Of a DNA stretch of 45,851 nt, positions 2,970 to 33,637 are shown piece after piece. Within the stretch, counting starts at the first letter, position 1. Each line of letters begins with the position of its first letter. A program made the translations under genes and the position numbers. The stretch covers positions 1 to 45,851 of the forward strand of contig JBDRBT010000021.1 in the NCBI GenBank assembly GCA_043822385.1, read 5' to 3'. This DNA comes from Candidatus Micrarchaeota archaeon. GTDB lineage: Archaea > Micrarchaeota > Micrarchaeia > Norongarragalinales > Norongarragalinaceae. The notes beneath the pieces were generated by a model, which had not been told where the DNA came from, ran no database searches, and saw only the letters and a list, made by a program, of their open reading frames with translations.

Positions 2970-3425
2970 TCAACAACAAGCTTGTTCTTTCTTTTTAGAG
3001 TGCTTGTAAATAAAATACGCGCCTTCTATAGAAAGTAAAAGAATCAAAAAGTAATAAAAGAGCAAGAAAAGGAATTTATCTTCAAAACGAATCATGAAGC
3101 CAAGCATTGCACCCATCAAGCCACCCATTACCGCGCCCATTATTCCCTCCATTCTAGCAAATTCATCTCCAATTCCAGAAAAAATATTCAAGACAACCGT
3201 AACTATTACTCCGATTACTATTGCAATCACGTTAGCTAATAAGTACTGGCCAGTGAAAAACGCGTAAAGCGTGCCTATACCAAAAGCAGCTAGAGTTCCG
3301 TAAATCATTCCCACCATCATGCAACACATGTGGTCTAAATTTTTCTTCTTAAGAAAAGCATAATACCCGGACGCTCCGATTACTACTACACTAAATAAAT
3401 AAGACAATACTTCAATCATTTCCAT
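2970..3425 (-). CDS. Met/Cys-rich multi-pass membrane protein, probably copper related
   Basis: 4-5 hydrophobic helices; HMCCMMVGM, MEGIMGAVMGGLMGAMLGFM and C-terminal CC; lies within the cop operon. Confidence 0.7.
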   Translation of the reverse strand: MEMIEVLSYLFSVVVIGASGYYAFLKKKNLDHMCCMMVGMIYGTLAAFGIGTLYAFFTGQYLLANVIAIVIGVIVTVVLNIFSGIGDEFARMEGIMGAVMGGLMGAMLGFMIRFEDKFLFLLFYYFLILLLSIEGAYFIYKHSKKKEQACC

Positions 3426-3426
3426 T

Positions 3427-3840
3427 TCAAACCACCCTTAATACGCCTCGAAACATGTTCATTCCACAACGATAAGCATACTCACCAGTTTTTACAGGCG
3501 TAAACTCAACAGTCTTGAATTCACCAGCATTAACCACCAAGTTAACTCCAAAATCAGGTATCACTAACTGCCTACCGCAACCAGCGTTTTTCTCTGCACT
3601 AAAAGTTAACTTAACTGGAATACCCGCTTTTACAGTAAGCGTTTGTTTGTCGTACGAGCCAGTGCTTAACGCCTTCAACTCTACTTCCTGCACTTCACTA
3701 CTTGAAAAGCCACCACCCAAAGAAGGAACTATTAGATTAGTTTCAGCCGGACTATGGTTAACCCAAAGCAACGCTACTGCACCAAAAAAAAGCAGTACCG
3801 CAATCAAACCTAAAACTAAATACGCTTTATTCAAATTCAT
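3427..3840 (-). CDS. Membrane-anchored cupredoxin-domain protein (CupA-like)
   Basis: N-terminal TM helix, GCG and YRCGMNMFRG motifs; ATG at 3840 follows an AGAGGT RBS. Confidence 0.85.
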   Translation of the reverse strand: MNLNKAYLVLGLIAVLLFFGAVALLWVNHSPAETNLIVPSLGGGFSSSEVQEVELKALSTGSYDKQTLTVKAGIPVKLTFSAEKNAGCGRQLVIPDFGVNLVVNAGEFKTVEFTPVKTGEYAYRCGMNMFRGVLRVV

Positions 3841-3954: not shown

Positions 3955-4437
3955 ATGAAAAAAACCAAAAGGCAGTTAATAGGAATAATCCTTGTTTTAG
4001 CTTTTGCGTCGCTAGTAGTCTTAGGAACGCATTACTACGTTAACTCAACAGGCGTTAATGACGGGATTACAGGACTAATCTTCAAGTATCACTTTGAATT
4101 CATGTTGTTAATTGGCTTGGGCGGAATTGCTGTGGGAGCAATAGCTTATTACTTGACTAGCCAGGAACTAGGTGTTCAGAAAGAAATAACCAAGAAAAAT
4201 ACACTGGTTTTACTGAACCTGCTCGATTCTGACGAGAAAGTAGTAATCGAGAAATTACTCGCAGAGAAAGGCAAGGCAAAGCAGTACGAAATAGCGTACT
4301 CAGCCAAGTTAAGTAAAGTCAGAGCGCACAGGGCAATCAAAAAGCTAGTTTCCAAAAACGTCTTGGAAGTCGAAAAACTAGGTAAAGTAAACTCAATTAA
4401 AATAAAACCAGAAATAATGCAAGGATTAATAAATTAA
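3955..4437 (+). CDS. Membrane-anchored winged-HTH transcriptional regulator
   Basis: Two N-terminal TM helices, then LDSDEKVVIE...Q.EI....LSKVRAHRAIKKL wHTH-like segment; divergent from the cop operon. Confidence 0.75.
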   Translation: MKKTKRQLIGIILVLAFASLVVLGTHYYVNSTGVNDGITGLIFKYHFEFMLLIGLGGIAVGAIAYYLTSQELGVQKEITKKNTLVLLNLLDSDEKVVIEKLLAEKGKAKQYEIAYSAKLSKVRAHRAIKKLVSKNVLEVEKLGKVNSIKIKPEIMQGLIN

Positions 4438-4450
4438 AATAAAAAAATAA

Positions 4451-4500
4451 GTGCTCCGAACGAGTTTAATCTATTTTAAAAAATCCCTAAACCCAATAAC
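4451..4500. repeat. att-like site A (distal): tRNA-Glu 3' core plus right arm
   Basis: GTGCTCCGAACGAGTTTAATCTATTTTAAAAAATCCCTAAACCCAATAAC; no TTAGGGAT left arm. Confidence 0.9.
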
Positions 4501-4547
4501 GAAAAAAAGCGTTAGCGTAAAAAACAAATATTTGATTTCACGCAAGC

Positions 4548-5600
4548 CTAAGTTATCAACGCACCGAACAATAAACCAGCGCTTACAGTTAACACTACAA
4601 TCAACCCAGCGTAAACCAGCGTTTTCTTCGAACCCAGTATTCCCCTCAAAACGAGCAGGCTCGGCAACGAGACAACTGGATCTGCAAGCAAGTACGCTAA
4701 AAGTGCGCCTTTAGACATTCCCAGCTCGAGAAACATCTTAGCCATTGGAACTTCCACCAACGTCGGAAAGTAAACGACTACACCGAACAAAACCGGGATA
4801 ATCATTGCAGTCAGCGTGTTGCTCCCAACTAAAGTCGAAACCCAGTCACCAGGAAGCAAAGCGCGAATAATTCCCGAAGCAAAAACTCCTGCAAGCAATA
4901 ACGGAAATATTTTTTTCGTGAAACCCCAGGTCTCACCCATCCAAGCATTAAATTCTTCCTTCGAAAAATACGTTTTAGTAATCAACGCAGTCAAAGCGAT
5001 TAACGCGGCAGTTAAACCGTACTTCAATAGTTCCTCGCTTACGCGCGTTCCCACTAAGAGTATTGCCACCAGCGTTGCAAACAAGTAAAAAAGTCGCCTC
5101 TTTTTGTGTTTCGTTGCGCTCTGCGGTGCAGCCTGTTCAGCAAAATCTTTAACTGCTTCATCTTTTTCTTCCTTGAACATCGAGCCTAAAACCAAACCTA
5201 TGAACAAAGCAAACAGGATTGAAAAGAATATTCTCGCTACAGCAATATCCCATCCAATCAAGCTGCCAGTGTAAAGAATCGCCACGATGTTAGTTGCTGG
5301 AGCAGTGTAAAGAAACGCTATCGCAGGTCCAAGCCCTGCGCCGCTCTTTCGAATTCCCGCGAACAACGGCAAAACAGTGCACGAGCAAACAGCAAGCAAC
5401 AATCCCGAAACAATGGCTACGGGATAAGCAACAATTTTAGGCGAGTTCTTACCCAAATAGCGCAGGAACTCGTTTTTAGGGACTAGCGCAGCCATGGCGC
5501 CAGCAATGAAAAAAGCAGGCACCAGGCAGAAAAGCGTGTGCGCAGCTAGGTAATCAAGTATAGCGGCAAACCCGCTTCCGAGTATTACAGCAAAATCCAT
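4548..5600 (-). CDS. DUF318/ArsP-family permease
   Basis: Multi-TM protein with AVCSCTVLP and AFLYTAPATN motifs; downstream of arsR and a small thioredoxin gene. Confidence 0.85.
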   Translation of the reverse strand: MDFAVILGSGFAAILDYLAAHTLFCLVPAFFIAGAMAALVPKNEFLRYLGKNSPKIVAYPVAIVSGLLLAVCSCTVLPLFAGIRKSGAGLGPAIAFLYTAPATNIVAILYTGSLIGWDIAVARIFFSILFALFIGLVLGSMFKEEKDEAVKDFAEQAAPQSATKHKKRRLFYLFATLVAILLVGTRVSEELLKYGLTAALIALTALITKTYFSKEEFNAWMGETWGFTKKIFPLLLAGVFASGIIRALLPGDWVSTLVGSNTLTAMIIPVLFGVVVYFPTLVEVPMAKMFLELGMSKGALLAYLLADPVVSLPSLLVLRGILGSKKTLVYAGLIVVLTVSAGLLFGALIT

Positions 5601-5607
5601 CGAGCCA

Positions 5608-5835
5608 CTACAATAACTTAATTAATTCTTCAACTGTCGGAAGAGTTCCTGAAACAAGCACTTTGCCGTCAACAACTAAAGCAGGCGTATTGAAGACGTT
5701 CCGCTCGATTATGGTATTAACGTCGTAAACGTGCTCTACTTTCGCGGTTATGCCTTTACGCCTAACGGCTTCTCGCGTTCTTTTTTCGAGTTCAACGCAC
5801 TTCGGGCAACCACTGCCTAAAACTTCAATCTTCAC
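5608..5835 (-). CDS. Small redox-active disulfide protein (MTH895-like thioredoxin)
   Basis: KIEVLGSGCPKC and TPALVVDG motifs; GTG start overlaps the arsR stop (GTGA). Confidence 0.88.
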   Translation of the reverse strand: MKIEVLGSGCPKCVELEKRTREAVRRKGITAKVEHVYDVNTIIERNVFNTPALVVDGKVLVSGTLPTVEELIKLL

Positions 5836-6083
5836 GTATACCACTTAGAAACATCATTCAACACTTTTATTCCCTTGCGCGAAAGAAAGTAAATTCGTTT
5901 AGTACCTTCCTTGCGTATTTCAACAAGCCCCGCATCAGAAAGAACTTTCAAATGCTGTGAAACCGCTGGCTGAGTTTTCTTAACAACTACCGGCAACTCA
6001 CAAGCGCAAATTTCGCCCTTGCTTATTTTCTTTAGCAGTTTAAGGCGCGTTTCGTCCGCAACAGCTTTCAAAACACCAGTCAT
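5832..6083 (-). CDS. arsR: ArsR/SmtB-family repressor
   Basis: KAVADETRL, EICACEL, QPAVSQHLKVL motifs. Confidence 0.9.
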   Translation of the reverse strand: MTGVLKAVADETRLKLLKKISKGEICACELPVVVKKTQPAVSQHLKVLSDAGLVEIRKEGTKRIYFLSRKGIKVLNDVSKWYT

Positions 6084-6149
6084 CAATATTAGTTTACACT
6101 TATATATTTAAATAACTAAACACATCACAAAACTAAAAAAAGAAATCTG

Positions 6150-6181
6150 AAGTTCAAGTCCCGAAAAGATATTCGAACCCG
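6150..6181. repeat. Degenerate att-like remnant
   Basis: AAGTTCAAGTCCCGAAAAG is identical (19 bp) to 11614-11632 beside tRNA-Glu; followed by ATATTCGAACCCG, which resembles the tRNA T-arm complement. Confidence 0.75.
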
Positions 6182-6769
6182 CTAGTGTTTCACCTTAAAC
6201 ATTTTTCCGTGGCCAGGAATTATATAATCCGAAATTTCTAAAATTCTTTTACGAGACTCAATTAATTTGTTTACGTCCATTCCTTTTGCTTGTGAGTGGT
6301 CTTTTTGATTAATGTCAAGTTCCTGCTTTTCTCCGTCAAGCCACCAAATAACATCACCAACAACGGCCATCTTACCCTTAGGCGTATTGACTATGAGTGA
6401 AAGATGTTCCTCAACATGTCCAAGCGTCTCAATAATCTCGATGTCCTTTCCTAGTTCATGTTTGTCAAACTCCGTCAATAAATCTCCATCATACATTAAG
6501 TTACTGTCAAACGTGATGAACTTTGCATTCTCAAATATCCCCGCAAGTAAAACATGATCAAGATGACGATGAGATAAGAAAACATAGTCAATATCTGCGG
6601 TGGTTAACCTTTCTTTTGCTAGTGCATCCAACAGCTTTTTACGATTACAACCAGGATCAGTAATTATCTTTTTGTCTTCTGTAGTAACCAAACAAGTGGT
6701 AGAACTAGCCACCCATCCATTCTCAAGCTGTTTTGCATATCCCTCTATCAAAACTTTTACTTCAGCCAT
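6182..6769 (-). CDS. MBL-fold metallo-hydrolase
   Basis: SHRHLDH, GH, GDV and IPGHG motifs; ATG at 6769 preferred because the longer ORF runs into repeat B. Confidence 0.88.
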   Translation of the reverse strand: MAEVKVLIEGYAKQLENGWVASSTTCLVTTEDKKIITDPGCNRKKLLDALAKERLTTADIDYVFLSHRHLDHVLLAGIFENAKFITFDSNLMYDGDLLTEFDKHELGKDIEIIETLGHVEEHLSLIVNTPKGKMAVVGDVIWWLDGEKQELDINQKDHSQAKGMDVNKLIESRKRILEISDYIIPGHGKMFKVKH

Positions 6770-6812
6770 ATAATTATCCCGTCCTGCCTTATTTTTGCCA
6801 TTAAATCTACAA

Positions 6813-6860
6813 TAAATTAGGGATCTTAATAAAATAAGAAGTGCTCCGAACGGAACGAGC
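6813..6860. repeat. att-like site B: left arm plus core
   Basis: TAAATTAGGGAT-N16-GTGCTCCGAACGGAACGAGC; right arm degenerate. Confidence 0.85.
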
Positions 6861-6904
6861 AACTAAAGTAAAAAAAGCGCAAAAAGGGGAAGAGAACTAA
6901 TAAC

Positions 6905-8821
6905 TTACGGTCCGCTTGGGTAGTGATCCACTCCATCACCTAAACCAGGAATCACGTAAGTATTCGGGTAACCAGGATTCTGAGAGAAATCACTCCAGGA
7001 ATTACCAACGCCGTTGTAATCCCAAGAGTTGCCGATTATGTTTTCCGCTTCATAAGCGTTCATGCTGTCATTCAAGTTATACATCAGCGTATTGTTCCAA
7101 ATAGTGTTTAGGGTTGAGAAATTAGAATTGCTTGCAAATAGGGATATTCCCTTGGTGCTAGCCTCATCAAGGTTGGATGCAAGCTTGTTTTCGCTAATTT
7201 TAGAGTTTAGTGTACCAGCTAAAGTCAAACCCTTTCCGCAATTAGTTATAACATTATTCCATACCTGCAAATTAGTGCTATCATTTAAAACCAGCCCGAC
7301 AGCAAAGAAAGGATAACCAGTAGGCTCGCAAAGGATATTATTCCCCCTAATTTCCATCAAATCACTATAATAAGTTACTATGCCTTCCCTGGGCCCAGTC
7401 GGCACAAGCACTTTGTTAGACAGAATCTTTGTGCCAGTCGTACGGTACAACCCAATAGCGAGGCCACTCGCGTTCTCAACAATATTACTTTCAAGAACAT
7501 TATTTCGCACAACACGGCTGCCACCATCCAAAGAAACTACTACTAGCCCGTACTCGCTGTTTTTAGCAGTATTTTGTTGAATGGAATTGTTATCCGACTG
7601 AATGAGAAAGCCTGCATCCTTATTATCTGAAGCAAAATTGTTTTGCAACTTATTATGGCTGGTAGACAAAAATCCGTCAAGATTTATAACAAAACCCTTG
7701 AGGTTATTATTTGCAGTGTTTTCATAAACCTCGTTGTTTACGGTGTTGTTGGGTGCCCATTGCCAAGCGTAATAACCCCCGGTCAAAGAAAAGCCATTGT
7801 TAATATTAGAAAAAGCAAGATTCTTGTAAATTTCTCCATCGGAAAGTACTAAAACAAAACCGTCTTTGTTCGATTTAGCCGAATTACCGTAGATCGCAAG
7901 GTTTTTTCCATTCAAATAAAAACCTTCCTTGCCATTTCCTTCCGCGATGTTTCCGCTTATTTTTGAGTAAGAGGAATTAAACAAAAAAATGCCGTACTCG
8001 GTATTGTTACTTGCAGTATTTAGCTCAACAGTAATATTGTATTCAACAGGCAAGTAAAAGCCCCAGTCATTTTTATTTGCAACGTTTCTAGAAAAAGAAG
8101 CGTTCGCAGAAGGCCTGCCACCATAATTCGGTTGCAGGGTGAAACCGCCGAAAGAATTACTTTCAGCAATATTTTGGTCAATCACTGCATTATCCAAACC
8201 GCTTAACTCAAAAGCAGCATTACCTTGATAGTTAAACTTAGCAGTATTGTTAACCAAACGTGCGTTATCTGAGAAATAAACAGCAAACCCGCCTTGATTG
8301 TAATTAGCGGAGTTTTGCAACAAGTACGCAGAACTAATGTTACTAACGAAAATAGCTGCGCGGTGATAGCTACCGCCGTTTCGTTCAAGCGTATTGTAGA
8401 ATAAATTAATCGAACGCCCGTCAATCGCATATATCCCGGTTCGGAAATCAGTTATGTTACAATTTTTGATAGTCACATAATTCCTATCGACACTTCTGAT
8501 TCCAGCAGACATATCGCCTAAAACCCCATCAATCGCGTGTCCATTGCAATCAAGAGTAATGCCATCCTTACCGATAATCAAACCGTCATTGGGACAATTC
8601 AGCAAGTCGTTCTGCATAACTGTGTTTCTAGTAATTGTTTGCCCGCAACGAACGTTAATAGGAGAAATGCTCGTAGGAATAGGCGCTAAAGACGCTGAAG
8701 GACGAGGAGGCGCAGCAGGCACACTAGTACTAGAATAAACCGCTTGATCACTGAATACTTGGCTTAAAACAACAAAACCCAAAACAATCAAAACACCAAA
8801 AACAATAGAATTAATTTTCAA
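6905..8821 (-). CDS. Secreted right-handed parallel beta-helix protein (NosD/pectin-lyase-like)
   Basis: Signal/anchor helix, Pro/Ser linker, ITLDCNG motif, many N-x-A-x-x-N-x-x-G-F repeats, C-terminal GNSW...DHYP. Confidence 0.85.
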   Translation of the reverse strand: MKINSIVFGVLIVLGFVVLSQVFSDQAVYSSTSVPAAPPRPSASLAPIPTSISPINVRCGQTITRNTVMQNDLLNCPNDGLIIGKDGITLDCNGHAIDGVLGDMSAGIRSVDRNYVTIKNCNITDFRTGIYAIDGRSINLFYNTLERNGGSYHRAAIFVSNISSAYLLQNSANYNQGGFAVYFSDNARLVNNTAKFNYQGNAAFELSGLDNAVIDQNIAESNSFGGFTLQPNYGGRPSANASFSRNVANKNDWGFYLPVEYNITVELNTASNNTEYGIFLFNSSYSKISGNIAEGNGKEGFYLNGKNLAIYGNSAKSNKDGFVLVLSDGEIYKNLAFSNINNGFSLTGGYYAWQWAPNNTVNNEVYENTANNNLKGFVINLDGFLSTSHNKLQNNFASDNKDAGFLIQSDNNSIQQNTAKNSEYGLVVVSLDGGSRVVRNNVLESNIVENASGLAIGLYRTTGTKILSNKVLVPTGPREGIVTYYSDLMEIRGNNILCEPTGYPFFAVGLVLNDSTNLQVWNNVITNCGKGLTLAGTLNSKISENKLASNLDEASTKGISLFASNSNFSTLNTIWNNTLMYNLNDSMNAYEAENIIGNSWDYNGVGNSWSDFSQNPGYPNTYVIPGLGDGVDHYPSGP

Positions 8822-8880
8822 GAAGCAATCACCTACAAATAAGTGAAATGAGGTGGTTAAAAAAATACGCGGTCTCTAGA

Positions 8881-8960
8881 TAAATTAGGGATTTGCATAA
8901 AAAAATTTGGTGCTCCGAACGAGTGTACTCTATTTAAAAAAATCCCTAAACCCAATAACT
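8881..8960. repeat. att-like site C: complete, core centred between 10-bp inverted repeats
   Basis: TTAGGGATTT (8885-8894) and AAATCCCTAA (8940-8949) flank GGTGCTCCGAACGAGTG. Confidence 0.92.
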
Positions 8961-9022
8961 AAAAGGAGTATGAAAAAGAGAAGAACCCAAGAAAAAAACA
9001 ACAAGAAATCGCTTTAATCTTT

Positions 9023-9607
9023 TTAACTGAGAATGACTATTAAAATAGTTGCTATTACTGCCATTACCGAAAAAGTATATCCTATAATTCTGCCTGTTAT
9101 TTTGGATTTTTCGACTAATTTGTATTCCCAAGTTTCTTCAGGAAACGCCAGAGAAGTTATGCCCATAACTCCTTTTCCTTGAACTTGTATCACTTTTTCA
9201 AAACTAGTTTTAGTAACTAACTCAACCCTGCTTTTAAAGCCAGTTACAAAACCAGCTATTGTTAACGCAGAAAACATTACTCCAGCGACTACAAGGAAAA
9301 TCGGCGGAAACATATATTCCGTTCCTGGCGGGTTGTTAAGTGTGCTATAATACGCCCACCACGGAAATACTGAAAAAGTAATTGCTAAAAGAAGTTTAAA
9401 CGGAGTTGAAACAAGAAGACTTGTTTTCTTAATTTTGTTATTTAACTTGTTAGGCCCTTCTGAATTAAATTCAGGTAATTTGTTAATACAACGAAGAAGG
9501 CTTATTGTTGAAAAAGTAACAAAGAAAGTTGTGTAAACTATTAGCAAGAGAAAAGTTAATGCTAAAGCTATTGTTGCAGCTTGAAGTATCGTATAAAATA
9601 TTTCCAC
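9023..9607 (-). CDS. Hypothetical membrane protein (about 4 TM)
   Basis: 194-aa ORF with four hydrophobic segments; AAGGA RBS-like and TATA-like sequence upstream. Confidence 0.7.
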   Translation of the reverse strand: MEIFYTILQAATIALALTFLLLIVYTTFFVTFSTISLLRCINKLPEFNSEGPNKLNNKIKKTSLLVSTPFKLLLAITFSVFPWWAYYSTLNNPPGTEYMFPPIFLVVAGVMFSALTIAGFVTGFKSRVELVTKTSFEKVIQVQGKGVMGITSLAFPEETWEYKLVEKSKITGRIIGYTFSVMAVIATILIVILS

Positions 9608-9660
9608 GTATCCTTAATTTTTTTCACTTATTAAAAAGTATTGCCGAAGGCCTAACGCAA

Positions 9661-10251
9661 TTAACTATAAACCGGTTCAACTGGACAAATTTCACCTGTT
9701 ACCGAAAACTCGTTTTCAGCAAAATTTGGTTTAGAACAAACAATAAACCCGTTCTCGTACTCTGATTCAAAGGAAACCATAAACCAAGCGTAGTTGATAG
9801 CAAAACCTTCGCCACCAGGCGTTTCGCTAGTATCATTATTTACAACCCAATCGCAACCTGTTTCTTCAGCTTTCGATTCATAAAGCTTAAAGAAAGTCTT
9901 TTTTGAATCCATTTCGGCTATATGAATCATTTCTCCAGCAGAAGAATCTGAAACCGTTTTTAAGAAATTACCTTTCCTCTTAAGCAAACGGTTACCAACT
10001 AGCTTGCTGGCGGGGGTATAATTGCAGTCAAAGTTTTTTCCTGAAGCAAGTAACTCATCAAAAAAGTTTTTGTATTCACCAGGCGCATTAGGATCAAACG
10101 TTCCCTCAAAGTAATCAACAACAGGCGTTGGAGTAGCGCTATTTTCTACTGTAGACACAGGTGTCGGCGTAGGAGAAGCATCTTCTTGATTAGTTGAAAC
10201 ACAACCAAACAACAAAAAACCAAACAAAACAATTAGAAAAAGCTTATTCAC
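9661..10251 (-). CDS. Putative lipoprotein
   Basis: MNKLFLIVLFGFLLFGC signal/lipobox-like N-terminus, Pro/Thr linker, Cys-containing domain. Confidence 0.75.
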   Translation of the reverse strand: MNKLFLIVLFGFLLFGCVSTNQEDASPTPTPVSTVENSATPTPVVDYFEGTFDPNAPGEYKNFFDELLASGKNFDCNYTPASKLVGNRLLKRKGNFLKTVSDSSAGEMIHIAEMDSKKTFFKLYESKAEETGCDWVVNNDTSETPGGEGFAINYAWFMVSFESEYENGFIVCSKPNFAENEFSVTGEICPVEPVYS

Positions 10252-10287
10252 GAAAACAAGTAAGAAAAACTCGTTTAAAACTTTGCT

Positions 10288-10354
10288 AGTTCAAGTCCCT
10301 TATAGGGATTTAGTGCTCCGAACGAGCGTAATCTATTTTAAAAAATCCCTAAAC
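10288..10354. repeat. att-like site D
   Basis: AGTTCAAGTCCCTTATAGGGATTTAGTGCTCCGAACGAGCGTAATCTATTTTAAAAAATCCCTAAAC. Confidence 0.92.
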
Positions 10355-10362
10355 AACAAGTT

Positions 10363-10704
10363 CTAAGTACTAGGATTTGGACCACAACACCAACCCGTAA
10401 CCCCGCCATTAGTAACTACAGGAGTAATCCAATCAACCACTCCTTCACACGAACTAACAGGCTCACTAGACAAATTACTAGACACTAAAATAAGACAAGA
10501 TTGTGGCGGGAAGTTCGTTACTCCGCTAGAATTCCACTCACTAGTTCCAGACACATAACAACCAGGCACTTGAGCCAACGTAGCACGACAAGCTTCTACA
10601 GGCCTAGGCCTAGTATCAGGAGTAGGCAAAAACAAATACGAAACCCACAAAAATAACAGCGCCAACACAAAAACAACGATTAAAGCTATATCCCACTTTT
10701 TCAT
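10363..10704 (-). CDS. Small membrane-anchored Cys-rich protein
   Basis: MKKWD plus TM helix, then six Cys; ATG at 10704; sole gene of the 468-bp module. Confidence 0.65.
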   Translation of the reverse strand: MKKWDIALIVVFVLALLFLWVSYLFLPTPDTRPRPVEACRATLAQVPGCYVSGTSEWNSSGVTNFPPQSCLILVSSNLSSEPVSSCEGVVDWITPVVTNGGVTGWCCGPNPST

Positions 10705-10780
10705 TTTACAAAAACTAGTACCACTAAAGAAGTTAAAAACCAAGCGGATTCACACAAAATAATGCTCTTTCCGAGAACGT

Positions 10781-10822
10781 ATGCTCCGAACGAGTGTGCA
10801 CTATTTAAAAAAATCCCTAAAC
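10781..10822. repeat. att-like site E: core plus right arm
   Basis: ATGCTCCGAACGAGTGTGCACTATTTAAAAAAATCCCTAAAC. Confidence 0.9.
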
Positions 10823-10852
10823 TCAAAAACTAAAATAAGCGTTCAAAAAAAA

Positions 10853-11569
10853 CTATTTTTTGTGAAAAACCTTTATGAATTCATCCGCAAACTTTTCAGC
10901 AAAAGCCCTTGCTTGCTTATGCCCTAACTCTGAATCAAGAGAAGACAAGGGCCGCTCAAGATTCATCGGAACTCCTGGCAAATCCCAATTATAATTGTCT
11001 CGCTTTTTTGTGTAATTAGCCCAATCAATTAATACTTTTAAGGATTGTTTAGGTGAAAGACCCTTACGCACAAACTCGTTATGCAAGTAAGGCGCTAAAG
11101 TCCACCAAATAAAAACCGCCCTACCTTCACTATCCAAGAAAATCCTAGCAGGATACTGTTCTTTACTAAAACCAGCGTGTTTTAAAAAGTCAAACCCGAA
11201 CTTTTTCTCTTCAGAACTCCTAGATTTGTCCGTAAGCGTATCCATGTAATCGAGAATGCGTTCAGCAGTCAAACGACTTAAATGAAAAAACGTACGACCA
11301 AAAGGAAACAAATTAGACTTATCCTTTTCTTCCAATTTTTTTAGATATTCTTGCGCTACTTTACGTACTTTTTCAGAATGCGTGTCGGTTCCAAATGCGC
11401 CCCCAAACTTAGGGTGATTATACACTAATCCTTCGCTTGACGTGCCAATAAGCATAGCTCCGACTTTATTCCTATAACTCCTAGAAGCATTAAAGAGGGT
11501 ATAAGCGGGACCTGAAATATGGTTTAACTTTTCATGAATTTTTTCAATTTGTTTCGGAGTTGGCACCAT
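10853..11569 (-). CDS. Hypothetical soluble protein
   Basis: 238-aa ORF filling the tRNA-proximal module; no recognised motif. Confidence 0.7.
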   Translation of the reverse strand: MVPTPKQIEKIHEKLNHISGPAYTLFNASRSYRNKVGAMLIGTSSEGLVYNHPKFGGAFGTDTHSEKVRKVAQEYLKKLEEKDKSNLFPFGRTFFHLSRLTAERILDYMDTLTDKSRSSEEKKFGFDFLKHAGFSKEQYPARIFLDSEGRAVFIWWTLAPYLHNEFVRKGLSPKQSLKVLIDWANYTKKRDNYNWDLPGVPMNLERPLSSLDSELGHKQARAFAEKFADEFIKVFHKK

Positions 11570-11640
11570 TAAAATATACTTACTAGAAAACAAATAAAAC
11601 CCTACGCAAATTAAAGTTCAAGTCCCGAAAAGGGCACTAG

Positions 11641-11715
11641 TGCTCCGAACGGGATTTGAACCCGTGTTACCGGCTTGAGAAGCCGAGGTCCTTGGCCGGG
11701 CTAGACGATCGGAGC
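11641..11715 (-). tRNA. tRNA-Glu(CTC)
   Basis: Cloverleaf: GCTCCGA/TCGGAGC acceptor, TCGGC-TTCTCAA-GCCGG anticodon arm, ACGGG-TTCAAAT-CCCGT T arm; CCA not encoded. Confidence 0.97.
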
Positions 11716-11747: not shown

Positions 11748-12839
11748 TTAAAACCAACCTAAGTAAATAGAAGCAATCATTCCTACTCCAAGCAACAACA
11801 TTAAAACGCCAGCAATCAAGTGAAGCGTCTTCAACTTGTTTTTACGCCAGTCTTCAGCTTGCTCAGAAGTAGTAAAACCAAAGTAAATACCTAAAGTAAT
11901 CAACAACATGGGTAAAACGAAAATCAAGTTATACAAAACTAGCAACATGAACGCGTAATCACGTGAAGTAGCTTTAGCAAGCAAGCCAAGAATAACTATG
12001 TAAGGACCGGAAGTGCAAGGCAACAAAAACAAGCTAACAATCAAGCCAGCAAAGAAAGCACCAGGAATAGACGTAACGCGACTAATTATTTTTTTCATTC
12101 TAGGCCGCCAACTCAACGGCACTTCCATAATGAACCACTTGCCGTACCAAAAGTAATCCTTCAAGTTAAACAAGCCAACAAAAATAGCTAAAATTGCTAC
12201 AGCGTAATAAAACGCTTGAGACAAGCCACTAGCTTGAATCACGCTAAACAAACCTAAACCCATAGCAAAGTAAGCCAAATAAACCGCAAGAGTAAACGCT
12301 AAACCAGCAAGCAAAGCTCTACGCCTATTCCCCGAAGCTAAAACAGCAGTAATCAATAAAATCAATACAGCGAAAGCACAAGGATTAATCGCGTCAACAG
12401 CCGCAGCTAAAATTACGGCGGGAATAGTTAACTGTTCTACTTCAGGTTGAACTGGAGTAGACACGAGTTTTTCAATAGGGTCAACGCAACCGTTTTCAAC
12501 ACAGTAAGTTATTTCTCCCTCTACTTCAGGCGCCATGAACGTAGCATAACCAACAATCATTTTTTCTCCAATGAAAGTAACGGGCACGCCAGAAACTTCC
12601 TGCCCGTAAGCACTAGTTAATTGCTGAAATAAATTATTATTAGCAATTTCATGAATCTCGAATTCCTTTACTTCAAGAGAAGGATACTTGTCTTTAATTC
12701 CATCTAGAAAATCAAGCAACTCAATGCAATGAGGACACGTAGTAGAATGAAAAACGTATATTGGCGTTGCGTGTTCTTGAGCTGCAACTAGAGTTGAAAA
12801 CGCTAGGAAACAAAAAACAAGCAAAAATAACTTATTCAA
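11748..12839 (-). CDS. Thioredoxin-fold + CcdA/DsbD-like disulfide transporter fusion
   Basis: Signal peptide, TCPHC and GVP motifs, then a TM domain with DAINPCAF and LPCTSGPY; TTG start after GAGGT (track start 12854). Confidence 0.85.
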   Translation of the reverse strand: MNKLFLLVFCFLAFSTLVAAQEHATPIYVFHSTTCPHCIELLDFLDGIKDKYPSLEVKEFEIHEIANNNLFQQLTSAYGQEVSGVPVTFIGEKMIVGYATFMAPEVEGEITYCVENGCVDPIEKLVSTPVQPEVEQLTIPAVILAAAVDAINPCAFAVLILLITAVLASGNRRRALLAGLAFTLAVYLAYFAMGLGLFSVIQASGLSQAFYYAVAILAIFVGLFNLKDYFWYGKWFIMEVPLSWRPRMKKIISRVTSIPGAFFAGLIVSLFLLPCTSGPYIVILGLLAKATSRDYAFMLLVLYNLIFVLPMLLITLGIYFGFTTSEQAEDWRKNKLKTLHLIAGVLMLLLGVGMIASIYLGWF

Positions 12840-12903
12840 AATAATAAACCTCAAAAATAACTAACAAATAAGTAAAAAACTCTTCTTAAATTAATCTCTT
12901 TAT

Positions 12904-13506
12904 TCAATAATGCAGATGACTAGTGTCATTAACTCTCGAAATCCTCCATTTTTTGCCTTCCTTAACTAATGAATTAATGCAAGCGTTAGACTGCACAAAA
13001 ACACGCCAGTTACTCAAAGGAGTTCCAGCAACTTCATCAAGCAAAAGCATTGCAGGATTATGATGCGTAATAATTAAAGCGTTTTCAGTTTTTTCTTTAT
13101 CTAGTTTCTTAAAGAAACTTAAAACTCTCTTCCTCACGTCAAGAATAGACTCGCCGCCAGATGGTTTCACGCGAATATTAAAGTAAAAATCATGAAACAA
13201 GTCCGGGTGTTCAGGCATTCTAGATAAAGAAGAGTAATCCTTGCCGTTGAAATCGCCGTAATTCCTTTCACGCAATTCCTTGCAAAAACGAGTTTTCAAG
13301 CCTAAACGCATTTCTTCAAGCGTTTGCCTAGCGCGATTCAAGTCAGAACAATACACTGAATCCAAAGGAATGTTACTGAAATACTTTCCAAGACAACGAG
13401 CTTGCTTTACACCCAAACGAGTTAACTCGCCGCCTAACCAGCCTTCATAAACGCGAGCGTCATTACCCTTGCTGCGCGCGTGCCGGACTATAAACAAGCG
13501 TTTCAT
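12904..13506 (-). CDS. Histidine phosphatase (phosphoglycerate mutase family)
   Basis: IVRHA, SDLNRARQT, LRERNYG, GGES, ITH and NDTSHL motifs. Confidence 0.9.
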   Translation of the reverse strand: MKRLFIVRHARSKGNDARVYEGWLGGELTRLGVKQARCLGKYFSNIPLDSVYCSDLNRARQTLEEMRLGLKTRFCKELRERNYGDFNGKDYSSLSRMPEHPDLFHDFYFNIRVKPSGGESILDVRKRVLSFFKKLDKEKTENALIITHHNPAMLLLDEVAGTPLSNWRVFVQSNACINSLVKEGKKWRISRVNDTSHLHY

Positions 13507-14252
13507 TTCTTTCCGGAAAACCTTCTGAACGCATCAAGCACTTCAACTGGAGTAACGAAAACAAGAGTATTAGATTGGTCAGCACTCACGTCAGCTAGAG
13601 TCTGCAGCGTCCTTAAATGTAGTGCACCAGGACTATCTGATAGAGTCTTGGCAGCTAACGCCAAGTTTTTGGAAGCTTGCACTTCACCACTAGAAATAAT
13701 TATTTGCGCGCGTCGCTCGCGTTCTGCCTCCGCCTCGCGAGCCATTGCTCTCTTCATATCCATAGGCAATTCAATGTCTTGAACTTTGATTGCGGTAACA
13801 TCAATACCCCACTCATCAGTCTCCTCGTCAACTACAGTACGAATCTCATCAGCAATCTTATCCCTATCCTGCAACGCTTCCTGAAGCGTACTGTTTCCAA
13901 TAACATCACGTAAAGCAGTTTGCGCATACTGGGATAAAGCGTAAGAATAATCCTGAATCTTGATTACAGCGTCCTCTGGCTTGATTACCTTATAGTAAAC
14001 AACCGCATTAACGTTAACTGGCACAGTATCCTTAGTAATTACTTCCTGTTTCGGAATATCAATCGTAGCAATCCTCAAGTCAACAGTAATACTCCGCTCA
14101 AAAAAAGGTATAATCAAGTTAAAGCCAGGCCCTAAAGTCCGCGAGTACTTTCCTAAACGCAAAACAATAGCTTTCTGCCACTGGTCAATAACTCTTATTC
14201 CAAACAAGAAAAAGAAAACAACTACGAAAAACAATAATAACCATTCAAACAC
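13503..14252 (-). CDS. SPFH/stomatin-like (slipin) protein
   Basis: TM helix, QEVITKD, AQTALR, MAREAEAERERRA and ALHLRTLQTL motifs. Confidence 0.93.
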   Translation of the reverse strand: MFEWLLLFFVVVFFFLFGIRVIDQWQKAIVLRLGKYSRTLGPGFNLIIPFFERSITVDLRIATIDIPKQEVITKDTVPVNVNAVVYYKVIKPEDAVIKIQDYSYALSQYAQTALRDVIGNSTLQEALQDRDKIADEIRTVVDEETDEWGIDVTAIKVQDIELPMDMKRAMAREAEAERERRAQIIISSGEVQASKNLALAAKTLSDSPGALHLRTLQTLADVSADQSNTLVFVTPVEVLDAFRRFSGKK

Positions 14253-14343
14253 TGAAAACCACCCTTAAACAAGAAAGGAAAAACAAGATTAAAACCTTAA
14301 CTAATAAAAAAGAAACAAGAGTTAAGTATTTCAGGTGCATGCA

Positions 14344-14829
14344 ATGAAAAAAGCAATAACGAGCTTAATAATCGCGATTCTTTTATTGGGTTGTACTTCA
14401 ACCACTGAAATAGAAACCCCTTCAGACTTCTCGTTTATTTACTCTACCGGAGCAATGCACACGGAATGGGGCGTTTACCACCTGGAAGTAAAAGAAAACG
14501 GCGAAGCAACTTACACTAAAACAATAGAAGAAACAAGTAAAGAATACAAGTTCAACTTGAGCCAAAAAGAAAAAAGTGCTTTATACGAAACAATGATTAA
14601 AAACAACTTTTTCTCACTTAAAGAAACTTACAAAGACCCGTCAATAATGGATGGTGGCTTCTCAGAATTAAACGTTCATGCAAACAATAAATGGAAAAAA
14701 GTCACAGTAGAAAATTACTATTTAGAAGAGTTTGAAAACATTGAACGCGAAATATCTATTTTACTACGAAAAAAACTAGATGCTCCCTTTTCTTTTGACG
14801 ACGTACTCAACGACCTGGAAGACGAATGA
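14344..14829 (+). CDS. Putative lipoprotein
   Basis: MKKAITSLIIAILLLGC lipobox-like N-terminus. Confidence 0.75.
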   Translation: MKKAITSLIIAILLLGCTSTTEIETPSDFSFIYSTGAMHTEWGVYHLEVKENGEATYTKTIEETSKEYKFNLSQKEKSALYETMIKNNFFSLKETYKDPSIMDGGFSELNVHANNKWKKVTVENYYLEEFENIEREISILLRKKLDAPFSFDDVLNDLEDE

Positions 14830-14903: not shown

Positions 14904-15014
14904 AGAACCTTTTTAGTGAAAAAACTTCACCAAAAAGGCAAAAGTTTGATCAAAAAATGAAAAAACTCTAGAGTAATAGTAGTTAATTAAAAAATATAAA
15001 AAGAAGGGAAAAGG

Positions 15015-32389: not shown

Positions 32390-33637
32390 ATGAACAAGAA
32401 ACTCGCTCTAGCACTCGTGCCCTTCCTAGCACTAGCGTTATTCTCGCTTTCATTCAACGCTTTTTCTTCAGATGAATACGCTTACTTAACTACAGGCAAA
32501 GCGTTCGCGCAAGGAACAACAAGCGGTTACACTGACTTAGACCGTTTTCCCTTGTACCCCTTTACTCTAGGCGCATTATTCAATGTTTTTGGTTATTCAG
32601 AAGTAATTGCACGGCTTTTCTCGATTCTCTTGGGCGCAGCAGGAATAATACTAACCTTCCTTTTAGCTAGAAAACTCGCGGGGGAAGAAACAGCGTTCTG
32701 GAGTGCCTTGCTCGTAGCAGTAAACCCTTTTTACGCTTACTTGTCAACGCGAATACTTACTGAACCCTTGTTCTTCGCTTTATTCCTAGCTTCAATATAC
32801 GCTTTATTCAAAGCAAAAGAATGGCGCGGCTACGCAATCTTTGGCATCCTCACTGGACTAACGTTCTTAACGCGGTACTTAGGCGCTTACTTGCTTCTAG
32901 CAGCAGGAGTGTACGCTTTCTTCTGGAAGAAAAGCGAGTTAACAATAAAAAACTCGCTCAGCGTTCTAGCAGGCTTTATTTTAGCATTAATTCCTTGGAT
33001 GGCTTGGAGCCAGAACGAAACAGGAAACCCGTTTGGCTTTGCAATAAACTTCTTGAAAAACCAACTCGCGTTGAATGAAACCGCGTTCTCTCTCCCAGAC
33101 AAGATTCCGCTTTACGCTCTTGGAATACTCATTCTAATGGCTGCAGCCAGCTTTGCTCTTTATTTCGCATTAAAAAAACAAAACAAGAAACTCGCTTTGC
33201 TTTACGCCGCAATTCTATCCGCATGGGTTAGTATGGAAGCATACGGACTACTGGGAAATACGCCGTTGCTGCGTTACGCGGTTCCGTTAGTGCCGTTAAT
33301 AGCAATAATTTGCGTTGACGCGGTACCCAAAGGATTCTGGTTTAAATTATTGAAGGCAGCGATTGCAGTAAACTTTATTCTAGCATTAATCGTGATTGCT
33401 TTCTTTGGTTCTTACTCTAAATACAACGGCTACAGGGAAGCAGGGTTATACGCTGCAGAACACTGCACAACAATTGATTCAAACATCCAGAGAATAATTG
33501 AGCACTATTCTGGAAAAAGAAACACGCTTAACGCTGAGTGCATTGTTGAAAGTAGTTTCGACGGAAAAATAGAAATACCAAGTGGTTATTACTTAGTATT
33601 CCAAAGCAAGGGAGTGAATGTTTATGAAAAAACTTGA
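32390..33637 (+). CDS. GT-C glycosyltransferase (ArnT/PMT-like)
   Basis: SDEYAY after TM1, RFPLYP, ARL, ILTE, LTRY and RYAVP motifs; polytopic. Confidence 0.85.
   Translation: MNKKLALALVPFLALALFSLSFNAFSSDEYAYLTTGKAFAQGTTSGYTDLDRFPLYPFTLGALFNVFGYSEVIARLFSILLGAAGIILTFLLARKLAGEETAFWSALLVAVNPFYAYLSTRILTEPLFFALFLASIYALFKAKEWRGYAIFGILTGLTFLTRYLGAYLLLAAGVYAFFWKKSELTIKNSLSVLAGFILALIPWMAWSQNETGNPFGFAINFLKNQLALNETAFSLPDKIPLYALGILILMAAASFALYFALKKQNKKLALLYAAILSAWVSMEAYGLLGNTPLLRYAVPLVPLIAIICVDAVPKGFWFKLLKAAIAVNFILALIVIAFFGSYSKYNGYREAGLYAAEHCTTIDSNIQRIIEHYSGKRNTLNAECIVESSFDGKIEIPSGYYLVFQSKGVNVYEKT

Follow-up and report, generated by a model that had tools for sequence, protein, structure and literature searches.

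Small gene modules without recombinase genes, arranged in tandem at the 3' end of tRNA-Glu in a Micrarchaeota genome

The 45,851-nt contig of Candidatus Micrarchaeota archaeon analyzed here (the window) was found to carry, next to its tRNA-Glu(CTC) gene, a 7.2-kb array of small gene modules separated by exact copies of the 11-nt 3' terminus of the tRNA gene. The window is contig C21 of the genome G000, a 26-contig metagenomic-type assembly of 764,949 bp that is 82% complete and has a guanine-cytosine (GC) content of 0.389. The layout of the array is consistent with serial integration of cargo-only modules at the tRNA end. The finding is real and extends beyond the window; mobilization of the modules in trans and an integron-like function are proposed from one low-depth contig and from comparative inference.

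An initial annotation of the window had noted that the tRNA end recurs at five further places in one orientation, and this was borne out by exact matching. The core, TGCTCCGAACG, was present at 11641 (site T, in the tRNA gene itself), 10782 (S1), 10314 (S2), 8911 (S3), 6842 (S4), and 4452 (S5), always on one strand. Read in the sense of the tRNA, as are all junctions below, it is CGTTCGGAGCA and comprises three bases of the T stem, the 3' acceptor strand (seven bases), and the discriminator. Six copies were seen against a chance expectation of 0.48, and none of 100 dinucleotide shuffles reached six. Spacings of 859, 468, 1403, 2069, and 2390 bp, with 1, 1, 2, 1, and 4 genes between the cores, had been given and were recovered from a listing of open reading frames (ORFs); all nine long ORFs between the copies lie on the tRNA strand, again as described. 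Elsewhere in the assembly, the exact core did not occur, and six one-mismatch matches were scattered on other contigs. An Rfam search of the sites returned the tRNA itself and no other known RNA family. Two other readings of the repeats were rejected. Upstream of the cores, the T-arm or anticodon-arm sequence that a split tRNA or tRNA half would have is missing; and the plus strand is complementary to the tRNA end, as in a primer-binding site, but TGG continues only at S3 (reverse transcriptase was not searched for).

A right flank common to four copies had also been reported, and it proved to be a 65-nt repeat family with 72-89% identity, located upstream of the core at S1, S2, S3, and S5. 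Within it, a right arm could be delimited that consists of a 22-nt block, GTTTAGGGATTTTTTWAAATAG, followed by 6 variable nt and CT directly before the core. Invariant columns accounted for 21/22 positions in the block and 1/6 in the spacer (Fisher p = 2.4e-4), CT and the core were fully invariant, and only 4 columns were invariant in the 30 bases further upstream. Such block-wise conservation points to constraint and not just recent copying. A hidden Markov model of the right arm matched the genome at these four places only. The worry that the motif might be a generic terminator scattered through the genome was thus answered by the confinement of both the exact core and the right arm to this locus.

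Downstream of the core, two common types of left arm were recognized, type b at T, S2, and a decayed junction designated S4b, and type a at S3 and S4; the left arm at S1 is distinct. Type b is a small hairpin followed by GGGACTTGAACT (17/20 positions identical between T and S2, p = 0.0025), and the CGGGACTTGAAC in it repeats the T arm of the tRNA imperfectly and in inverted orientation. In type a, ATCCCTAATTTAT comes after a T-run, with 22/26 positions identical between S3 and S4. The TAGGGAT previously noticed to the left of three copies was found at S4, S3, and S2. The left-arm sequence ATCCCTAA reads as the right-arm sequence TTAGGGAT inverted, so that an inverted pair of 8-10 bp, with its members ~45 nt apart, brackets the core, and an inner junction such as S3 is roughly symmetric about it. 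These inverted motifs are subterminal, at 17-22 nt from the core, and the very ends are not inverted repeats.

Decay was apparent at two of the junctions. At S4 the conserved right arm has been lost, and a partial duplication (CGTTC-CGTTC) is found in its place. S4b, CGGGTTCGAATATCTTTTCGGGACTTGAACT, lies between the genes for the metallo-beta-lactamase-fold protein and the ArsR-family regulator and copies the T junction (T-loop, core, and type b arm), with a deletion of ~19 nt that corresponds to the core plus about 8 nt. The arm at this site, CTTTTCGGGACTTGAACTT, is identical to that at T over 19/19 nt. Its T-loop, GGGTTCGAAT, is of the type found in the tRNA-Glu of G001, a genome of the same genus, versus GGGTTCAAAT in the tRNA of G000, which makes the tRNA-like segment element-borne and variable in length. 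With S4b taken into account, the 2390-bp interval splits in two and the array comprises six modules, E1 to E6, which span 0.46-2.1 kb and hold one to three genes each (Table 1). At the outermost site, S5, the core is followed by an oligo-T trailer, CTTATTTTTTT, and the stop codon of a convergent gene (3955-4437) lies 14 nt past the core. The tRNA-Glu of G001 likewise has a trailer, CTTTTTTTTT, with a convergent gene directly after it, and by this resemblance the S5 flank looks like a native tRNA trailer; the genes downstream of the G001 tRNA are unrelated.

Table 1. Features of the tRNA-Glu array and of a related module. Positions refer to the window unless another contig is named.
Feature	Position	Strand	Size	Description
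tRNA-Glu(CTC)	11640/11641-11715	minus		Intact; ARAGORN; Rfam tRNA 56.3 bits
Core at site T	11641-11651	minus		Last 11 nt of tRNA-Glu(CTC); tRNA positions 63-73
Left arm of E1	11615-11640	minus		Type b; hairpin + GGGACTTGAACT
E1	ORF 10853-11593	minus	859 bp	246 aa (238 aa from ATG); no known family
S1	10782-10822	minus		Core 10782-10792 + right arm of E1 (CT, 6-nt spacer, block GTTTAGGGATTTTTTWAAATAG)
E2	ORF 10363-10743	minus	468 bp	126 aa; no Pfam family
S2	10288-10354	minus		Left arm type b of E3 10288-10313, core 10314-10324, right arm of E2 10325-10354
E3	9023-10251	minus	1403 bp	196-aa and 194-aa ORFs; no Pfam family for either
S3	8880-8951	minus		Left arm type a of E4 8880-8910, core 8911-8921, right arm of E3 8922-8951
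E4	6905-8821	minus	2069 bp	638-aa beta-helix/NosD-like protein; hydrophobic N-terminus
S4	6811-6866	minus		Left arm type a of E5 6811-6841, core 6842-6852, degenerate right arm
E5	6182-6769	minus	about 0.7 kb	Metallo-beta-lactamase-fold protein, 195 aa from ATG
S4b	6151-6181	minus		Decayed seventh junction; T-loop remnant CGGGTTCGAAT + left arm type b
E6	4548-6086	minus	about 1.7 kb	ArsR-family regulator 84 aa, Thioredoxin_3 78 aa, ArsP_1 permease 350 aa
S5	4452-4492	minus		Outermost; core 4452-4462 + right arm of E6 4463-4492
C26/C24 module	C26:1950-2228, C24:11498-12383			Loci L025, L026

The same pattern was detected at other tRNAs of G000 when the terminal 12-mers of the 42 predicted tRNAs were searched against the genome and the terminal 10-14-mers against 20 kb on each side. 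One of the intron-bearing tRNAs of this genome, located at the C26/C24 contig ends (Rfam, 52.6 bits), ends in CTCCCTAGGCAC, and its 12-mer recurs 874 bp downstream. The module so delimited holds one 219-aa gene, on the opposite strand and of no Pfam family. Its left arm, TTATATGCAAAGCCCTAA, agrees with the S3 left arm at 16/18 positions and at the same offset from the core (p = 0.0025), and its right arm, TTGTGTTTAGAGATT, with the Glu right arm at 13/15 (p = 0.019). The ends of C26 and C24 overlap at this tRNA, indicating that the assembly broke there. At C2:43216-44474, tRNA-Gly(CCC) ends in a very GC-rich 10-mer, GGCCGCCGCA, that recurs 1,137 bp downstream. The enclosed module holds a single 329-aa Fic/DOC gene, and the distal repeat lies 17 nt after its stop and is followed by CTAATTTTTTT, an oligo-T trailer, and then by a convergent gene. 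A scan for more arrays had been suggested in the initial annotation; it yielded homologous arms at C26/C24, but arm plus core were absent from the 60 relatives searched.

Evidence from a second genus was obtained through the cargo of E6. Close homologues of its ArsP permease (80-85% amino acid identity) were present in 4/5 genomes of the genus g10, and none was found in G001 or in the family's other genera. DNA similarity of 69-72.5% extends over the permease and thioredoxin genes at all four g10 loci and into ArsR at three, and it stops at the operon borders; the operon flanks differ among the g10 genomes. In G010, which belongs to this genus, a 2,134-bp module with ArsR, thioredoxin, ArsP (80% amino acid identity), and DUF2703 genes follows tRNA-Pro(CGG) immediately. 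The terminal 11-mer of this tRNA, CTCCCCCTGCA (positions 63-73), is found again 2,134 bp downstream, 16 nt past the final stop codon. The GC content of the module deviates toward the middle in both genomes, at 0.508 versus 0.55-0.59 in G010 and 0.434 versus 0.389 in G000. The repeat starts at tRNA position 63 in Glu, in the C26 tRNA, and in the G010 Pro, and the direct repeats vary in length, with 10 nt at C2, 11 nt in G010, 12 nt at C26, and 23 nt at a tRNA-Val in G001.

The last of these repeats borders a 127-bp insert without genes behind tRNA-Val(CAC) on G001 contig C54 (L014 ~3220-3442), which contains perfect palindromes and a TAGGGA/TCCCCTA pair. Separately, the last 11-12 nt of tRNA-Asn (C16:739-813) were found in a divergent intergenic region at C18:7124-7180 (L027 ~3125-3180), next to an upstream arm that is an inverted copy of the C26 left arm (29/34 positions; 0/2000 shuffles as good). 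The C18 copy may mark the distal end of a large insert, represent a relic, or be in part a chance 12-mer, against which its arm similarity speaks; it is given as a lead only.

Four groundwater metagenome runs from two studies were found to contain pieces of the G000 assembly. They hold 0-18% of the sampled words, as short low-depth contigs, and parts of the array are without cover in all four, which says nothing about absence. Contigs of at least 99% identity from three runs, covering both studies, fall in several modules. A 166-nt contig from run X3 spans S4 as in the window and without differences, and the possibility of a misassembly, raised in the initial annotation, was thus addressed at that junction by independent data. 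In run X1, a 250-nt contig (depth 2.6) follows the window from 4272 to 4448 and then continues at 6839, skipping 2,390 bp, which is the exact spacing of S5 and S4. At the joint, 14 letters (aag plus the core) fit both sides; the contigs are built on 31-mers, and a 14-nt repeat should not make such a join. Run X1 also has a contig from within the skipped part (5154-5371). This core-to-core skip, seen in one low-depth contig, supports insertion or loss at the core.

The best explanation, which on balance we consider probable, is serial site-specific integration of non-autonomous cargo modules by a tyrosine-type integrase that acted in trans or has since been lost. The region 4452-11651 would then be an accretion array, in which six cargo-only modules were inserted successively into the 3' end of tRNA-Glu(CTC) by crossover within the 11-nt core, that is, tRNA positions 63-73. 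Each integration would regenerate the tRNA and move the older modules outward, so that an inner junction would come to consist of a right arm, the core, and the left arm of the next module, as in an attP site, and the outermost junction would retain the native oligo-T trailer of the tRNA. The observed layout is attL-like at T, attP-like inside, and attR-like at S5, as predicted for serial integration at one tRNA. The initial annotation had arrived at a tandem-integration layout as well, and the details agree with it: at T only the arm on the module side is present, the inner sites resemble attP, and at the outermost site an arm is combined with a native-looking oligo-T trailer. Site-specific integration is the only established process known to us by which foreign DNA comes to be flanked on either side by a duplicated tRNA 3' end. 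The data show the repeat architecture, its confinement to this locus, the block-wise conserved arms, one core-to-core presence/absence variant, and parallel loci at other tRNAs; how recombination proceeds, which enzyme would carry it out, circular intermediates, and any continued movement of the modules are matters of inference from this layout and from the comparisons.

The recombinase would most likely be of the ~400-aa tyrosine integrase type that is common in relatives, and it may have been supplied in trans by an element outside the assembly or have been lost. Proteins of the family PF00589 were found in 30/60 relatives (29 of them over the Pfam cut-off), mostly with ~400 aa and often near contig ends, and in 10/25 genomes of the family; none was found in G001. 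A tRNA lay within 1.5 kb at 4/20 integrase loci fetched. Classical elements with an integrase inside were present at tRNA-Phe of G026 (5.3 kb, 20-nt tRNA-end repeat) and at tRNA-Val of G058 (7.2 kb, 23-nt tRNA-end repeat).

A number of results weigh against this explanation. Pfam revealed no recombinase family among the nine array proteins, and PF16795, PF00239, PF01867, PF01548, PF07282, and PF01609 gave no match in the 82%-complete assembly, each search having had positive controls in known genomes. For the seventh family, PF00589, a single match of 14.6 bits was obtained, below the 27.1-bit cut-off. This match (33033-33209) was rejected as a recombinase, being antisense inside ORF 32390-33637 and having one internal TGA stop. 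The array was thus free of integrases, as the initial annotation had stated, and the assembly yielded no tyrosine or serine recombinase, Cas1, IS110, TnpB, or DDE_1 transposase; given the completeness of 82%, absence from the genome is unproven. For Cas1 (PF01867), there were 0 matches in G000, G001, and G010, and matches in 5/60 relatives.

Also on this side of the balance, the skip variant is a single contig of depth 2.6, and it could stem from recombination between the S4 and S5 stretches, which are identical at 23/25 positions, or be the ancestral state. In run X3, a joint leads from 8866 back to 4606, with CCTT between, and lies at no core; in run X1, a contig matches the window to 4449, and what follows, with no core at the transition, is dissimilar. 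These two contigs are a hint that the population includes arrangements with breakpoints off the cores. The earlier expectation that variation would occur at the cores agrees with the skip of exactly one core-to-core segment, but not with these two contigs. No circular junction was found among the run contigs listed, and contigs cannot show rare forms. Concerning G010, chance 10-14-mers were common between flanks in an unanchored control, and its repeat is significant only because it is anchored at the tRNA end (~3000/4^11, or about 1e-3). No tRNA was found at the other three g10 operon loci within the 3.1-4.0 kb fetched (1.1-1.5 kb of it beyond the ArsR end of the operon, and no more than 1.5 kb beyond the opposite end). 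Arm plus core were found in 0/60 relatives and in no metagenome, viral, or genome contigs, and the right arm alone in 0/67 other genomes of the order and in no metagenome or viral contigs. These searches being empty, no independent copies or free elements are known; for the second arm type, one match with 3 mismatches was obtained, in G003. As a separate observation, the unlike sequence past 4449 in the X1 contig extends for at least 255 nt and starts with a GGACTTGA-like motif on the other strand.

A wider form of serial integration in trans can be envisaged, in which the modules belong to a family of cargo-only mini-elements (0.13-2.4 kb) of small-genome archaea, a pair of conserved arms with a TTAGGG-type inverted motif enclosing little beyond one to four genes. 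Their insertion, excision, and shuffling at the last 10-12 nt of various tRNAs would be the work of a recombinase whose gene resides on an episome, in a virus, or even in the host cell, and tRNA ends would be cassette docks, an archaeal functional counterpart of the integron in genomes without a recombinase of their own. This is proposed as a tentative possibility. Slightly more doubtful is a history of decay, with tandem integration at the tRNA of larger elements that had their own integrases and with later trimming of these by deletions; the modules would then be fossils that never moved as small units and are now immobile. The order does have integrase-bearing elements of 5.3 and 7.2 kb at tRNAs, decay is visible in the lost arm of S4 and the lost core of S4b, no enzyme was found in the assembly, and degenerate remnants and scattered partial tRNAs are reported, in sections of the work on tycheposons cited below, from tycheposon islands. 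However, no integrase fragments were found between the array genes, and a full right arm with block-wise conservation has been kept in 4/6 modules. Nor is the Glu locus alone in this respect: three more modules of one to four genes at other tRNAs, in two genomes, are equally integrase-free, and the ArsR module is similar in size in two genera at two different tRNAs. One variant, moreover, differs by exactly one core-to-core unit.

Transposition was considered improbable. A casposase-like or other transposase might recognize the T-arm region of tRNAs, make a staggered cut of ~11 bp that becomes a target-site duplication, and insert non-autonomous elements with inverted end motifs. This would fit the start of the repeat at position 63 (three times independently: in Glu, at the C26 tRNA, and in the G010 Pro), the arms common to elements at different tRNAs despite different cores, the inverted arm at C18 (29/34), and the opposite strand of the C24 module gene; casposons, in the parts of the report cited below, target tRNA 3' ends and form tandem arrays that share target-site duplications, in both orientations. 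It fits less well that the inverted motifs are subterminal, that the repeat length is not fixed (10, 11, 12, or 23 nt), and that the inner junction at S4b carried a longer tRNA-like segment including the T-loop. The 12-nt boundary at C24 and C18 is the minimum length detectable by the search, and neither Cas1 (in G000, G001, and G010) nor DDE_1, IS110, or TnpB (in the assembly) was found. Very little weight is given to a regulatory origin, by which a promoter/terminator unit was spread by local duplication, with an incidental or regulatory match to the tRNA and no mobility. Its appeal is that T6-7A3-4 in the 22-nt block resembles the (G)CTTTTTTAA(A) boxes found ~25-35 nt upstream of G000 tRNAs, that the block also resembles an archaeal oligo-T terminator, and that every copy lies between transcription units on one strand. 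But the unit occurs nowhere else in the genome, S5 has no downstream gene to drive, as the next gene is convergent, and the exact match to the tRNA-terminal 11 nt, the ends of other tRNAs at other loci, and the core-to-core skip would all be left unexplained. Least credible of all is that short repeats caused pieces of different strains to be joined wrongly. The assembly is of a 26-contig metagenomic type, and C24 and C26 do break and overlap at a tRNA with such a repeat; the repeats are, however, at most 65 nt long with 72-89% identity, shorter than usual reads, and the X3 contig across S4 and the contigs of at least 99% identity in several modules, from three runs and two studies, agree with the window.

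Among the cargo proteins, the translations of the two E3 ORFs showed by eye a lipoprotein-like N-terminus (196 aa) and hydrophobic stretches (194 aa). The protein of E1 (from ATG, window 10853-11569, minus strand) had 33 distant relatives in a full HMMER search, with invariant H, R, W, T, P, and Y residues that include an HxxR and a WWTLAPYLH-like motif. Its AlphaFold model is all-helical, with a predicted local distance difference test (pLDDT) score of 81.1 and a predicted template modeling (pTM) score of 0.82. Comparison of the model with PDB folds gave 0 matches at E ≤ 0.001 (best E, 1.4), a Pfam family was assigned to 0/27 family members, a word-index protein search returned only the protein itself, and a protein atlas gave no usable match. 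E1 as a known recombinase was set aside, as neither a Pfam family nor, for the predicted structure, a PDB fold match was obtained. Relatives of E1 were located at four loci, in metagenome-assembled genomes (MAGs) of Iainarchaeum and Micrarchaeota and, as a weak match, on one Patescibacteria contig. Such relatives, the groundwater occurrence, the intron-bearing tRNAs, and the assembly size would suit a small archaeon of DPANN type. No tRNA was found near them at the three archaeal loci, and no telling repeats at L017 and L018, the two loci scanned. A Patescibacteria tRNA-Glu(TTC) lies 1.3 kb from the weak 42-residue match, on the other strand, and was taken as a coincidence.

Other features were observed around the tRNA genes of G000. 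A (T/G)ATCAAA motif and hairpins of the form AAACTTTT-loop-AAAAGTTT adjoin many of these genes, upstream and/or downstream (for example at C6:31679, C6:88708, C20:11823, C23:8815, and window 14905-14960), and a similar unit is present in the intron of the C2 tRNA-Gly. It may act as a signal for processing or for transcription, or be a small mobile element. When 11748-12854 and 13503-14829 of the window were compared at the DNA level with the syntenic 9.3-kb G001 contig L014, a DsbD_TM/glutaredoxin-like gene upstream of tRNA-Glu, a 249-aa gene (13503-14252), and a 164-aa gene (14335-14829) were not matched; the surroundings of both tRNAs thus appear to be variable.

The array shares traits with several known systems. 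Like the tRNA-targeting tyrosine-integrase elements of G026 and G058, the modules are inserted at a tRNA 3' end, with the tRNA regenerated or intact and flanking direct repeats of the tRNA end. Those elements have their own integrase and repeats of 20-23 nt that reach into the T-loop, whereas the modules have none, measure 0.46-2.1 kb, and have repeats of 10-12 nt (once longer, at S4b). In streptococci, cis-mobilizable elements (CIMEs) lie between att sites, lack recombination genes, and occur in tandem with other elements at a tRNA or gene end. These bacterial elements, usually several kb in size, are regarded as derivatives of integrative and conjugative or integrative and mobilizable elements that become mobile once joined by an element with an integrase. 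The modules are like CIMEs in that att-type sites flank them and neither recombination nor transfer genes are present, and unlike them in that this assembly holds no helper element. Integrative mobile elements exploiting Xer (IMEX) are likewise integrase-free and pile up in tandem at dif by means of the host XerCD. Reliance on an enzyme that is not self-encoded would be common to both, but the target here is a tRNA end and no PF00589 recombinase was found in the assembly.

Integrons have been reported in archaeal MAGs (10.1101/2022.02.06.479319). With an integron, the present locus shares an ordered, co-oriented array of very small, mostly single-gene cassettes, each ending in a recombination site. 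There is here no IntI and no attI, the array is anchored at a tRNA end, and a piece of a tRNA is included in the junctions. Nor was attC-type folding found at the six sites, as judged from fold energies and not from an attC model: when folded as DNA, they gave z-scores of -0.73 to -1.72, and 14-45 of 200 shuffles folded as well or better. The description as integron-like in the initial annotation therefore stands for the small co-oriented cassettes and as an analogy of outcome only. The casposon report, in the parts drawn on here, describes archaeal elements that target tRNA 3' ends and form tandem arrays sharing the duplicated target, in either orientation (PMC4779613). They need Cas1 and PolB and terminal inverted repeats, and the duplication length is typical of each, such as 14 bp in M. 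mazei, as the same parts state (PMC4779613); the modules have no Cas1, subterminal inverted motifs, and repeats of 10-23 nt. Also similar are the tycheposons of Prochlorococcus, for which sections of the report describe successive integrations at one tRNA, with a partial tRNA between elements and the older elements pushed into the island (10.1101/2020.12.28.424599). The streamlined host, the stacking at a tRNA, the adaptive cargo, the remnants, and the extra partial tRNAs described in those sections are all paralleled here, whereas a recombinase, usually along with a replication module, defines tycheposons, and their host is bacterial (10.1101/2020.12.28.424599). Conserved arm-core-arm junctions around units of one to three genes are not described in the same sections (10.1101/2020.12.28.424599). 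Tandem accretion at tRNAs with partial tRNAs between the elements is already known in bacteria, and the kind of event is not new. New are the small size of the modules (one to three genes), the lack of recombinase genes at four loci in two genomes, the conserved and roughly symmetric arms, and the very small archaeal host genome; no description of integrase-free mini-module arrays at archaeal tRNAs was found in the open-access literature searched, supplements aside.

Tiny archaeal genomes carry few recognizable mobile-element genes, and the gain of accessory genes in them is hard to explain. If modules are docked by an enzyme from outside, gene flow would be possible without any recombinase in the recipient, and the signature of tRNA positions 63-73 plus arms would be an easy means of spotting genes that such genomes acquired recently. 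At about 70 bp, the arm-core-arm sites are concrete substrates for the ~400-aa integrases of relatives. Even if the modules are fossils, the locus records at least six successive integrations at one tRNA and an exchange of the ArsR-thioredoxin-permease genes between genera.

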